Below, in pieces: positions 39,080 to 42,987 of a stretch of 58,765 bases of DNA (within the stretch, counting starts at the first letter, position 1; every line of letters begins with the position of its first letter). Made by a program: the position numbers and the translations under genes. The stretch is from a phage. The notes below the pieces were generated by a model. That model was not told the origin of the DNA and made no database searches. It saw only the letters and a program-made list of their open reading frames with translations. The DNA lies in sequence record PX530564.1; one strand, given 5' to 3'.

Positions 39080-40537
39080 ATGGAATTAGAACAAGATAGT
39101 ATTTTCCTATATCATGCTCCTTGCGAGAACTGTGGGTCTTCTGATGGTAACTCTGTGTATTCTGACGGTCATGAATACTGCTTCGTATGTGAGCACCGAG
39201 TTCCGGCCTCAGACGAACGTAAGGAAAAGTTATCATCAAGAAGACGTATAGTCGGTGGAGGTAAACCAATGACGTACAACGTGTGGAACTTCGGGGACTC
39301 CAATGGGCGTTACTCTGCGCTAACTGCGCGAGGAATTTCTAAGGAAACCTGTCAGAAGGCTGGCTACTGGATTGCTAAAGTAGACGGTGTGATGTACCAA
39401 GTGGCTGACTATCGGGACCAGAACGGTAACATTGTGAGCCAGAAGGTTCGCGATAAAGATAAGAATTTTAAGACCACTGGTAGTCACAAGAGTGATGCCC
39501 TGTTCGGGAAGCACTTATGGAATGGCGGTAAGAAGATTGTCGTCACAGAAGGTGAAATTGACATGCTTACCGTTATGGAACTTCAAGACTGTAAGTATCC
39601 TGTAGTGTCGTTGGGTCACGGTGCCTCTGCCGCTAAGAAGACATGCGCTGCCAACTACGAATACTTTGACCAGTTCGAACAGATTATCTTAATGTTTGAT
39701 ATGGACGAAGCAGGGCGCAAAGCAGTTGAAGAGGCCGCACAGGTTCTTCCTGCTGGTAAGGTACGAGTTGCAGTTCTTCCGTGTAAGGATGCCAACGAGT
39801 GCCACCTGAATGGTCACGACCGAGAAATCATGGAGCAAGTCTGGAATGCTGGCCCGTGGATTCCTGATGGAGTGGTATCGGCTCTTTCGTTACGAGAACG
39901 AATCCGTGAACACTTATCGTCAGAGGAATCCGTAGGTTTACTTTTCAGTGGCTGCACTGGTATCAACGATAAGACCTTAGGTGCCCGTGGTGGTGAAGTT
40001 ATTATGGTAACTTCCGGTTCCGGTATGGGTAAGTCAACGTTCGTCCGTCAACAAGCTCTCCAGTGGGGCACAGCGATGGGTAAGAAGGTAGGCTTAGCGA
40101 TGCTTGAGGAGTCCGTTGAGGAGACCGCTGAGGACCTTATAGGTCTACACAACCGCGTCAGACTGAGACAATCCGACTCACTAAAGAGAGAGATTATTGA
40201 GAACGGTAAGTTCGACCAATGGTTCGATGAACTATTCGGTAACGATACGTTCCATCTATATGACTCATTCGCTGAGGCTGAGACCGACAGGCTTCTTGCT
40301 AAGCTGGCCTACATGCGCTCAGGCTTGGGTTGTGATGTAATCATTCTAGACCACATCTCAATCGTCGTGTCCGCTTCTGGTGAATCAGATGAGCGTAAGA
40401 TGATTGACAACCTTATGACCAAGCTCAAAGGGTTCGCTAAGTCAACTGGGGTGGTGCTGGTCGTAATCTGTCACCTTAAGAACCCGGACAAAGGTAAAGC
40501 ACATGAGGAAGGTCGCCCCGTTTCTATTACGGTGTAG
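39080..40537 (+). pseudogene. 4: gene 4 primase-helicase truncated after codon 485 by junction with early-region DNA
   Basis: ORF track; homology to block A gene 4 ends at 40530 (..RPVSIT) then V-stop; roughly the C-terminal 80 codons are missing. Confidence 0.85.
40169..40193 (+). promoter_or_regulatory. internal T7 RNAP promoter phi4c-like (block B copy)
   Basis: CAATCCGACTCACTAAAGAGAGAGA. Confidence 0.55.
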
Positions 40538-40631
40538 GGATAGGAACCGAGAAACCTGCCCGCGACCCGCCAAGGATAAGGCACTAGCTATGAGTCGAAT
40601 TCGGTCACTCATCGCATAAAAGAATAACAGG

Positions 40632-40660
40632 TTGACAGCCTCCTTTAAAAGCTGTAAGAT
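40632..40660 (+). promoter_or_regulatory. sigma70-like promoter inside the shared 137-bp block (block C copy)
   Basis: TTGACAGCCTCCTTTAAAAGCTGTAAGATGTACC; block 40531..40667 near-identical to 28663..28799. Confidence 0.45.
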
Positions 40661-40847
40661 GTACCACGAAATGACGGAACAGTGAGTCACCACACTGAAA
40701 GGTGATGCGGCCTAACGAAACCTGACCAAAGACGCTCTTTAACAATCTGGTAAACGGCTCTTGAGTGTACACACGTAGCGGATAACTCAAGGGTATCGCA
40801 AGGTGCCCTTTATGATATCCACTAACAACACTATGAGGTAACACACA

Positions 40848-41198
40848 ATGGCTATGTCTAACATGACTTATAACAACGTTTTCGATCACGCTTACGAAAT
40901 GCTGAAAGAAAACATCCGTTATGATGACATCCGTGACACTGATGACCTGCACGATGTAGTACACATGGCAGCCGATAGCGCCGTTCCGCACTATTACAGC
41001 GACATTTTCAGCGTAATGGCAAGCGAGGGCATTGACCTTGAGTTCGAAGACTCTGGTCTGATGCCGGACACCAAGGACGTAATCCGTATCCTGCAAGCGC
41101 GTATCTATGAGCAACTCACGATTGACCTCTGGGAAGACGCTGAGGACTTACTGAACGAGTACCTTGAGGAAGTCGAAGCAGAAGAGGACGAAGAGTAA
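40848..41198 (+). CDS. ocr: gene 0.3 Ocr anti-restriction protein (116 aa), second copy
   Basis: ORF track; one aa difference from the copy at 29071. Confidence 0.93.
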
Positions 41199-41353
41199 TG
41201 ACTAACAACACCACGCAATACGGTCTGACCGCTCAAACTGTACTGTTCTATAGCGACATGGTGCGCTGTGGCTTTAACTGGTCGCTCGCAATGGAACACC
41301 TTAAGGAACTGTACGAAAACAACAAGGCAATAGCCTTGGAGTCTGCCGAGTGA
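41198..41353 (+). CDS. 0.4: gene 0.4 protein (51 aa), second copy
   Basis: ATG 41198, TGA 41351-41353. Confidence 0.65.
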   Translation: MTNNTTQYGLTAQTVLFYSDMVRCGFNWSLAMEHLKELYENNKAIALESAE

Positions 41354-41421
41354 TAGGCTCAAGGTCGCTCGATATGAGTGGCCTTTATGATTATCACTTT
41401 ACTTGAATGGGAGTAATGCAC

Positions 41422-41550
41422 ATGCTTACTATCGGTCTACTCACCGCTCTAGGTCTAGCTGTAGGCGCATCCTTTGGGAAGTCCTTAGGCGTAGCTGTAG
41501 GCGCTTACTTGGTCGCTTGTATCATTACGGGAGCACTGCGCAAATGCTGA
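41422..41550 (+). CDS. 0.5: gene 0.5 small membrane protein, second copy
   Basis: ATG 41422, MLTIGLLTALGLAVGASFGKSLGVAVGAYLVACIITGALRKC. Confidence 0.6.
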   Translation: MLTIGLLTALGLAVGASFGKSLGVAVGAYLVACIITGALRKC

Positions 41551-41706
41551 AACACTACGTTATGCCTATCCACACATCCAACGGGTCTACAGTATGCACA
41601 CCTGATGGGTTCGCAATGAAACAACGAATCGAACGCCTTAAGCGTGAACTGCGCATCAACCGCAAGATTAACAAGATAGGTTCCAGCTATGACAGAACTC
41701 ACTGAT
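41545..41706 (+). CDS. 0.6: gene 0.6A (53 aa); the overlapping frame 41689..41907 may give a 0.6B-type extension
   Basis: ATG 41545, MLKHYVMPIHTSNGSTVCTPDGFAMKQRIERLKRELRINRKINKIGSSYDRTH; overlapping ORF 41689..41907 in ORF track. Confidence 0.6.
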
Positions 41707-41928
41707 GGCTTAAAGAAAGGTTACATGACCAACGGTACACTATACGCTGCAAATAGGCGAATAGTGAGAACTTGGCGAGAGAACAACCTTGAACGCCGTA
41801 AGGCCCAAGAAAGGGCGGCATGGCATCGGCGAAAGGAAAAGGTTAAAGCCAAGAAACTCGCCGCACTTGAAAAGGCACTAGCCAATACACTGAACGCTAT
41901 CTCATAACGAACTAAAGGACACACTGAA

Positions 41929-42987
41929 ATGAACATTACCGACATCATGAACGCTATCGACGCAATCAAAGCACTGCCAATCTGTGAACTTGACAAACGT
42001 CAAGGTATGCTTATCGACTTACTGGTCGAGATGGTCAACAGCGAAACATGCGATGGCGAAATTACAGAACTGAATCAGGCACTTGAGCATCAAGATTGGT
42101 GGACTACCTTGAAGTGTCTCACGGCTGACGCAGGGTTCAAGATGCTTGGTAATGGTCACTTCTCGGCTGCTTACAGTCACCCGCTGCTACCTAACAGAGT
42201 GATTAAGGTGGGCTTTAAGAAAGAGGACTCAGGCGCTGCGTATACCGCATTCTGCCGCATGTATCAGGGCCGTGCAGGTATCCCTAACGTCTACGATGTA
42301 CAGCGCCACGCTGGGTGCTATACGGTGGTACTTGATGCGCTGAATGATTGCGAGCGTTTCGACAACGATGAGCACTATAAATACGCTGAGATTGCAAGCG
42401 ACATCATTGACTACAAATCCAATGAGCACGATATGTTAACTGGGTGGGATGGCGAGTTCGTCGAGACTTGTAAGCTAATCCGCAAGTTCTTTGAGGGCAT
42501 CGCTTCGTTCGACATGCACAGCGGTAACATCATGTTCGGTGCTAATGATGTACCGTACATTACCGACCCTGTGTCATTCTCACAGAAGAAAGATGGTGGC
42601 GCATTCAGTATTGACCCTGAGGAACTCATCAAGGAAGTCGAAGAGGTCGCACACCAGAGAGCAATCGACCGCGCTAAGGAACGTAAAGAACGTCATGTGG
42701 GCCGATTGGAGGCACGCAAAGTAAAACGCCGTAACCGTAAGGCACGTAAAGCACACCAAGAGAAGCACAAACTATTATTGCCCTTGAGCGTAACCAGCAA
42801 GGTGATATGCCCAACCTTGTCCTCGTTCGTATTCTCAAGTGCCGCTTTACTGGTGATACTGGTATTGCTGGATATATGGAATACAATAAGGAAACAGGGT
42901 GGCTCGAACCATCTAGCTACACTGGGGAAGAAGGGAGTGGAGACAATGAAGCGACCGACTGGTCAAACGACTCTGACTTCTAAATGA
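41929..42987 (+). pseudogene. 0.7: gene 0.7 kinase 5' portion (about 280 codons) fused out of frame to the 3' end of gene 4
   Basis: ORF track 352 aa; kinase homology through ..[10 protein letters not shown], then the product reads the gene 4 tail in the wrong frame (..[15 protein letters not shown]..). Confidence 0.8.
42769..42983 (+). pseudogene. 4: 3' fragment of gene 4 primase-helicase (last ~70 codons) without its own start
   Basis: In gene-4 frame: ..[69 protein letters not shown], stop TAA 42981-42983. Confidence 0.8.

Follow-up and report, generated by a model that had tools for sequence, protein, structure and literature searches.

An early-region fragment inside gene 4 of a T7-like phage sequence is very probably a tile of a computational chimera

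Short direct repeats are where deletions and duplications of T7 are known to arise. Exchanges between natural T7-like phages likewise proceed through short direct repeats or stretches of homology, and their products are viable and packageable, with genomes of about 38–40 kb. Here, we analysed a phage DNA sequence of 58,765 nt (PX530564.1; hereafter the window), which at 58.8 kb stands against 38.7–39.7 kb for four related complete genomes and in which 2240 nt of T7-type early region (positions 40531–42770) lie between two parts of gene 4. This 2.2-kb insertion is, in our judgement, very probably one tile of a computational chimera rather than the result of a biological event. An earlier, sequence-only reading had implied a real rearranged phage, possibly with a kinase fusion transcript, though with the apt proviso that the phage be real; this was not supported, as positions 28001–58765 are a blunt concatenation of slices from three public records.

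The break in gene 4 was located by self-BLAST of the window, in which the left-hand 28,000 nt (block A, 1–28000) provide an uninterrupted copy for comparison with the remainder (block B, 28001–58765, 30.8 kb). Gene 4 homology ends at 40530|40531 and restarts at 42771; the flanks pair 1219–4735 with 37023–40530 (93.5%) and 4776–4986 with 42771–42981 (87.8%). The loss from gene 4 amounts to exactly 40 nt, block A 4736–4775 being without a counterpart. These alignments confirm an early-region fragment that replaces about 40 bp inside gene 4, with the coordinates first given for it off by at most 2 nt. The insert also matches the window's other early region over three stretches, 28663–28804 with 40531–40671 (98.6%), 28956–29888 with 40736–41666 (92.7%), and 30383–31228 with 41912–42757 (86.5%). 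The E-values of these matches, from 1e-65 to 0, exclude chance, and the identities agree with the initial impression that the two early-region copies differ from one another.

On the forward strand, the insert contains a sigma-70-type early promoter (TTGACA-17-TAAGAT, 40632–40660; 10/12 matches in a promoter scan) and ocr/gp0.3 (40848–41198; Pfam PF08684, E=1.5e-62), which corresponds to the CDS at 1018–1368 of Escherichia phage C5. Mapping from the identical C5 record further places gp0.4 at 41198–41353, gp0.6B at 41689–41907, and codons 1–280 of the gp0.7 kinase from 41929 onwards. With a host-RNAP promoter followed by ocr, the small ORFs 0.4–0.6 and the 0.7 kinase, composed and ordered as in C5 701–2940, the insert has the make-up of a T7-type class I (early) region. 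The early-region character that had been read from the letters was upheld by the C5 annotation, Pfam and the promoter scan. The right end of the insert cuts gp0.7 at codon 280 of 359, partway through the coding sequence.

All of block B can be tiled, on the plus strand throughout, with slices of public records. Positions 28001–40530 are bases 1–12530 of Escherichia phage vB_EcoM_CQ615 (PQ010280.1; megablast 100.0% in one piece, string identity), from the left end of that record through gene 4 codon 484. The insert, 40531–42770, is phage C5 (NC_048079.1 / MH717099.1) 701–2940 (100.0%, 2240/2240 nt, string identity, C5 annotation). It is followed at 42771–48721 by C5 12321–18271 (100.0% over 5951 nt, again with string identity and the C5 annotation), comprising the final 71 gene 4 codons, an HNH endonuclease gene, genes 4.3, 4.5, 4.7, 5, 5.5–5.9, 6, and 6.5, and part of 6.7. 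Positions 48722–58765 are bases 29192–39235 of phage 64795_ec1 (KU927499.1 / NC_031114.1; 100.0% over 10044 nt), which extend from the 3′ portion of gene 15 as far as the right end, the final base of the record. For this last tile, identity was established from a single-piece 100.0% BLAST match and a comparison of both ends by eye; its bit score of 18548 is the value for 10044 perfect matches and thereby supports full identity.

The insert and its right-hand flank hence share one parent genome, C5, both being 100% identical to its GenBank record. The other early region belongs to phage CQ615, so that the suggestion of a different parent for the insert was correct. When duplicate accessions and N30, a near-twin of C5, were left out, the next-best distinct phages per tile were about 90–97% identical (93.6%, 96.5%, and 89.8%). 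Base-perfect tiles with a clearly diverged next-best phage are what characterizes an in-silico composite. The three source records stem from unrelated isolations, from plant sewage in Shandong, from swine faeces in China, and from Italy.

Block A is of a different nature. Queries with 1–5000, 25001–28000, and 1–25000 returned no 100% tile; the highest identities were 92.6%, to Shigella phage ESh1, and 92.1% and 95.2%, to Serratia phage Pila. The exact products of its genes 4 and 17 were absent from an index of 153 billion genes, and its last 30 nt had no match in IMG/VR. As block A occurs in no database searched, at least part of the window was not copied from the collections that we searched, an observation that we counted against an artefact. 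We also considered that block A might be an artificially mutated version of a known genome and rejected this; its differences from CQ615 and C5 fall mostly on third codon positions (18/4/113 in gene 5, the third position dominating) and all its long ORFs are intact. We consider block A to be a slice of a natural T7-like phage, about 92–95% identical to its nearest recorded relatives, and as such to represent ordinary species-level diversity. It is the sole part of the window with possible biological novelty.

At the level of proteins, the claim of a truncated primase-helicase was borne out by translation. The interrupted gene 4 (39080–40537, plus strand; CQ615 gene 4 annotation 11080–12780) encodes 484 native residues of 566, followed by a valine and a stop codon that come from the insert. 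The protein loses its C-terminal 82 residues, the Pfam DnaB_C match ends at profile position 180 of 255, and the 40-nt gap by itself shifts the gene 4 frame. On the other side of the insert, a chimeric ORF of 352 aa (41929–42987, plus strand, from translation) joins residues 1–281 of C5 gp0.7 to a different downstream frame; 281 of 284 residues at its N-terminus are identical to C5 gp0.7. Such a long chimeric frame had been anticipated, as a fusion of the kinase with gene 4, and this second half of the proposal did not hold. The tail matches Pfam DUF5480 (E=3.4e-25) and is 70% identical to residues 24–92 of T7 gp4.2. The ORF tail follows the gene 4.2 frame, which overlaps gene 4 at its 3′ end; the gp4 frame reads differently there, and gene 4 stops with TAA at 42981–42983, whereas the chimeric ORF stops with TGA at 42985–42987. 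The predicted fusion is kinase::gp4.2, not kinase::gp4. Neither the truncated gp4 nor the fusion ORF had an exact product in the same 153-billion-gene index of called genes.

At the left junction (40530–40531), CQ615 base 12530 meets C5 base 701 with 0 nt shared, and neither source continues across; at the right junction (42770–42771), C5 base 2940 meets C5 base 12321, again with 0 nt shared in a string comparison; and the seam at 48721|48722 shares 1 nt. The homology or microhomology at crossovers that natural recombination requires was not detected at these three sites (0, 0, and 1 nt). Within 200-nt neighbourhoods, the longest shared word was 6 nt at the left and 8 nt at the right junction, compared with a random mean of 7.7 and a maximum of 12. 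A hexamer, CTATTA, adjoins both junctions (tttCTATTAc|insert|aCTATTAttg), an arrangement found at only 0.33% of random positions, and we counted this against an artefact; both copies are native gene 4 sequence and were 48 nt apart before the event.

The outer limits of the composite coincide with record ends and round offsets, as in an in-silico composite, and not with molecular landmarks. Its start, window position 28001, is a round offset and at the same time base 1 of CQ615 as deposited. The CQ615 record begins 15 nt inside the canonical terminal repeat, which C5 carries at both genome ends, and lacks the first 15 nt of this repeat, TCTCACAGTGTACGG. As the composite begins at the truncated base 1 of the CQ615 file, its start point is set by a database file rather than by any DNA molecule. 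Its end, window position 58765, is the final base of the 64795_ec1 record, and block A stops at exactly 28000, a point 39 nt inside the holin gene according to the alignment to phage Pila.

Searches for an independent occurrence of the junctions gave no match. A 5-kb query over both of them returned no phage record covering at least 80%, and a 400-nt query over the left junction, probing for a prophage, plasmid, or cloned construct, found nothing in E. coli complete genomes or PLSDB plasmids. The left-junction 27-mer was absent from IMG/VR, metagenome contigs, and GTDB genome contigs, and the right-junction 27-mer from IMG/VR. A literature search on the names of the source phages retrieved no description of such a construct.

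Could a de Bruijn or overlap assembler have wrongly joined reads from a sample with several T7-like phages? A window of ~1.5 genome lengths with many genes in two divergent copies is how a strain-mixture misassembly can look, and block A, being natural unrecorded phage sequence in which third-codon-position differences dominate, would suit such an origin. However, graph and overlap assemblers change path inside shared sequence, and the ends joined here share 0–1 nt at the seam, with nearby words not above chance. Since the joined ends lack an above-chance k-mer, we reject an assembler hop at these sites. A single sample would also have had to harbour phages that match, at 100.000% identity, three isolates obtained by different laboratories in different countries, and the composite opens at window offset 28001 with the truncated first base of CQ615 as deposited. 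A de novo assembly chimera is thus very unlikely. Insertion of a mobile element, a transposon or homing-endonuclease cassette that brought early genes into gene 4, scarcely deserves credence. Freestanding HNH/endonuclease VII genes do lie nearby (C5 12544–12999, window 42991–43449; CQ615 1932–2321, window 29932–30321), but the insert itself holds no endonuclease or transposase gene: Pfam recognized only ocr there and DUF5480 in the downstream flank, and no nuclease is among the annotated genes of C5 701–2940. The insert is, moreover, a contiguous slice of C5 that ends within gp0.7. Repeat analysis found neither terminal inverted repeats nor a target-site duplication at its ends, and 40 nt of the target were lost instead of duplicated. 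Lacking such repeats, a target-site duplication, and a mobility gene, the mobile-element hypothesis was rejected.

The window could alternatively represent real DNA, produced by illegitimate recombination in a mixed infection or by in vitro ligation, cloning, or engineering, in which a C5 fragment was captured at the gene 4 break of a CQ615 × C5 recombinant. End-joining and in-vitro ligation give blunt, homology-free joints, and the seams are of this kind; the switch from CQ615 to C5 is nearly homologous, with an offset of 40 nt, all pieces are co-oriented, and the CTATTA hexamer stands at both insert seams. Against such a molecule speak the exact identity of its tiles to three independent database records together with the record-specific truncated start, seams that use no short direct repeats, and a junction that occurs in none of the phage, plasmid, E. 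coli, viral-contig, metagenome, or genome records searched. Its size and content argue in the same direction. The window far exceeds the length of related genomes and is not a replicable or packageable product of ~38–40 kb with its essential genes intact. Block B lacks the equivalents of block A 10602–21231, from the 3′ part of gene 6.7 to the 5′ part of gene 15, including the portal, scaffold, capsid, tail, and core genes; without structural genes and with the essential gene 4 broken, it could not propagate as a T7-like phage. If ever made as DNA, the composite would be dead, its gp4 short by 82 residues, its frame shifted, and its structural module gone. An origin as real DNA of this kind is highly improbable. 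It is extremely improbable that the window records real defective T7-like DNA, for instance an end-joined non-viable recombinant or a parasite-like replicon from a mixed infection with CQ615-, C5-, and 64795_ec1-type phages, which would carry a second early cassette in gene 4 and express gp0.7(1–281)::gp4.2. Were this true, the T7-like genome would be a surprising defective or parasitic form, in which a duplicated ocr/kinase cassette splits an essential replication gene.

A computational origin remains the reading that we prefer: a base-perfect piece of C5, butt-joined to other published T7-like genomes, points to an assembly or in-silico artefact. What can be observed directly is which pieces are present, that they match the records exactly, and that their junctions are blunt; from the sequence alone we infer how they may have come together. 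Butt-joining of CQ615 1–12530, C5 701–2940, C5 12321–18271, and 64795_ec1 29192–39235 would yield positions 28001–58765. Placed behind 28,000 nt from a fourth T7-like genome, itself unrecorded, this composite would complete the window. Candidate routes include deliberate in-silico construction or a rearrangement simulation, a reference-filled or reference-guided assembly, and an error during the concatenation of records. The tiles are co-oriented and in genome order, with the switch from CQ615 to C5 offset by only 40 nt, which we counted against an artefact; such synteny is also expected from a real homologous crossover. The arrangement resembles a designed or simulated “recombinant” more than a random concatenation. 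Four seams suffice to account for all anomalies reported for 28001–58765, namely a duplicated early region, a truncated gene 4, a 6.7/15 fusion, and the missing structural module. As a matter mainly of quality control, neither the window nor the record from which it derives should serve as evidence on phage biology, on hot spots of recombination, on gene duplication, or on new fusion proteins.

Compared with its own sources, the window agrees with C5 at every base of 701–2940 and 12321–18271, and all genes of the insert are those of C5 (ocr, 0.4, 0.6B, and 0.7). In C5, however, 9.4 kb separate these two stretches and gene 4 (annotated at 11019–12533) is intact, whereas the window joins them end to end and lacks C5 12281–12320. 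Similarly, CQ615 1–12530 is identical to window 28001–40530, including the truncated left terminus of the record, but in CQ615 gene 4 runs on to 12780 within a complete genome, where the window leaves it at 12530 for early DNA of C5. Natural early-region deletion and duplication mutants of T7 and the mosaicism of Teseptimavirus involve the same genes (0.3–0.7) and the same idea of exchange between relatives. Unlike these events, the window has seams without homology, a disrupted essential gene, and no structural module in its composite part. Parallels also exist to chimeric or misassembled contigs and simulated recombinants, which share with the window patches of perfect identity, abrupt seams, duplicated gene sets, and non-viable content. 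Typical assembler chimeras, in contrast, switch within shared repeats, and the seams without shared sequence seen here point to string concatenation or reference filling and not to mis-traversal of an assembly graph.

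Every long ORF of the window lies on the + strand, the genes present are those of a T7-like phage (Teseptimavirus), and the length of 58.8 kb corresponds to about 1.5 genome lengths. Self-BLAST resolved two partly redundant blocks: block A (1–28000), running from gene 1.6/1.7 to the start of gene 17.5, and block B (28001–58765), which extends, with rearrangements, from a left end to a right end. Equivalents of block A 10602–21231, from within gene 6.7 (3′ part) to within gene 15 (5′ part), are missing from block B according to the same comparison. Portal, scaffold, capsid, tail and core genes are among those lost, and block B therefore cannot be a viable phage.

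Within gene 4 (primase-helicase), block A 1219–4735 aligned to 37023–40530 (93.5% identity) and 4776–4986 to 42771–42981 (87.8%), and exactly 40 nt of the gene are replaced by a 2240-nt (2.24-kb) early-region insert at 40531–42770. This confirms, almost to the base, the sequence-only reading of a fragment of about 2.2 kb that replaces some 40 bp of gene 4. The insert carries a sigma-70 promoter (40632–40660, promoter scan), ocr (40848–41198; Pfam PF08684, E=1.5e-62), gp0.4 and gp0.6B and, in its 3′ part, the gp0.7 kinase up to codon 280, broken mid-codon at the right end. As previously noted, it differs from the other early region of block B: self-BLAST aligned 28663–28804 to 40531–40671 (98.6%), 28956–29888 to 40736–41666 (92.7%) and 30383–31228 to 41912–42757 (86.5%). 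The unaligned gap (29889–30382 vs 41667–41911) exists because only the block B copy, derived from phage vB_EcoM_CQ615 (CQ615), harbors an endonuclease VII gene (29932–30321) between 0.6 and 0.7; the insert, derived from phage C5, lacks it. The proposal that the two copies came from different parents was thus correct.

These origins follow from a megablast search of 50,697 phage records, in which the insert matched bases 701–2940 of Escherichia phage C5 with 100.0% identity over all 2240 nt, and from alignment of the whole C5 genome to the window, in which 42771–48721 matched C5 12321–18271 without a mismatch in 5951 nt. The left flank of the insert is only 95.7% identical to C5; the sequence from 28001 up to the insert equals bases 1–12530 of Escherichia phage CQ615 (100.0%). 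From 48722 to the window end, the sequence equals bases 29192–39235 of Escherichia phage 64795_ec1 (100.0%, ends also compared), 39235 being the last base of that record. Direct string comparison showed the CQ615 tile and both C5 tiles to be identical to their sources. With duplicate accessions and N30, a near-twin of C5, set aside, the next-best distinct phage was clearly diverged in each case: identity reached 93.6% with the CQ615 tile, 96.5% with the insert and 89.8% with the tile from 64795_ec1. The three source phages stem from independent isolations, one from plant sewage in Shandong, one from swine faeces in China and one from Italy. In the 64795_ec1 tile, the tail-fibre gene 17 (53333–55205) is split into two overlapping ORFs (53333–54205 and 54141–55205), a split that was inherited rather than made in the window, because the 64795_ec1 record already annotates two CDS.

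No record in the phage collection matched block A at 100%. The closest relatives are Serratia phage Pila (95.2% over 1–25000, 92.1% over 25001–28000) and Shigella phage ESh1 (92.6% over 1–5000). Differences from CQ615 and C5 fall mostly on third codon positions (e.g., gene 5, 18/4/113; gene 16, 73/17/398), a bias which indicates natural, unrecorded T7-like phage sequence. Block A is a collinear but arbitrary 28,000-nt slice of a T7-like phage: alignment to Pila placed its end, at exactly base 28000, 39 nt inside holin gene 17.5. Because it stops there and not at a right end, 28000|28001 is not a concatemer junction. Block B opens at a round offset, 28001, with the first base of the CQ615 record. 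The canonical T7-type terminus, TCTCACAGTGTACGG-ACCTAAAG, stands at the beginning of C5 and again at 39418; the CQ615 record opens only at ACCTAAAG and lacks the 15 nt (TCTCACAGTGTACGG) with which the canonical terminal repeat begins. The start of block B is therefore a file-specific truncation, not a molecular end.

Very probably, database strings were concatenated directly, as argued by tiles that each match one of three unrelated public records base for base, blunt seams, tile boundaries on record-file boundaries and a round offset, non-viable gene content, and junctions absent from public data. At 40530|40531 and 42770|42771, neither source continues even one base across, and 48721|48722 has a 1-nt overlap. 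The joined 200-nt neighbourhoods had words of no more than 6 and 8 nt in common, against a mean of 7.7 nt and a maximum of 12 for C5 200-mers paired at random. No phage record covered at least 80% of a 5-kb query over both insert seams, and a 400-nt query across the left junction had no match in E. coli complete genomes or plasmids. The left-junction 27-mer did not occur in IMG/VR, nor in metagenome contigs (JGI) or genome contigs (GTDB), the right-junction 27-mer did not occur in IMG/VR, and neither the truncated gp4 nor the fusion ORF is on record among called genes. A chimera made by a de novo assembler from a mixed sample is unlikely, since the joined ends have no k-mer in common at any seam and such an error would have to coincide with the CQ615 record start. 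Even less credible is a real end-joined or ligated molecule, given the base-perfect tiles, the record boundaries and the non-viability. Insertion of a mobile element ranks lowest and is hardly conceivable, as every defining feature is absent: repeat analysis detected neither terminal inverted repeats nor a target-site duplication at the insert ends, and Pfam searches detected no mobility gene within it.

Direct concatenation may reflect a chimera that was simulated or constructed, an assembly filled in from references, or an error in merging records. Two points sit badly with a concatenation made purely at random. All tiles share one orientation and are roughly syntenic, with the CQ615-to-C5 switch only 40 nt out of register, which suggests a chimera designed or simulated to resemble a recombinant. 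Furthermore, the native gene 4 hexamer CTATTA abuts both insert seams (40524–40529 and 42772–42777), an adjacency expected at only 0.33% of random positions; this is probably a coincidence. The observation of an insert in gene 4 holds, but its reading as a biological rearrangement is not supported, and the feature is an artefact.

The consequences for reading frames are hypothetical and would apply if such DNA existed. At seam 48721|48722, C5 sequence breaks off within gene 6.7 (base 18271) and 64795_ec1 sequence takes over within gene 15 (base 29192). Every head, tail and core gene is lost through this join, which also gives rise to two ORFs, the gp6.7 N-terminus with a foreign tail (48566–48826) and the gp15 C-terminus (48736–49278). 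Translation of gene 4, which is essential, gave 484 native residues followed by Val-stop, so the predicted truncation of the primase-helicase stands. The last 82 of 566 residues are lost, and the DnaB_C match (Pfam) ends at profile position 180 of 255; judging from T7 gp4, helicase motif 4 and the arginine finger lie in the lost part, as does the acidic C-terminal tail contacting DNA polymerase. Gene 4 is followed directly by a freestanding HNH endonuclease gene (42991–43449; C5 12544–12999). Neither block A nor CQ615 has this gene at the equivalent position, a difference that reflects ordinary variability of homing endonucleases among T7-like phages. A long chimeric kinase ORF had also been anticipated and does exist (41929–42987, 352 aa), but it does not continue in the gp4 frame, which reads differently over the same DNA and stops at 42981–42983. 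A kinase::gp4 fusion was rejected, as gp0.7 is followed to residue 281 and then by the gene 4.2 frame, the tail matching Pfam DUF5480 (E=3.4e-25) and being 70% identical to T7 gp4.2 residues 24–92. The kinase ORF stays open out of frame for 72 codons past the seam because the overlapping gene 4.2 ORF pre-exists: this conserved DUF5480 gene occupies the +1 frame over the gene 4 3′ end (42771–42987, and also block A 4654–5055), an arrangement also present in T7, where gene 4.2 is a small gene (T7 12988–13326) overlapping gene 4 at its 3′ end.
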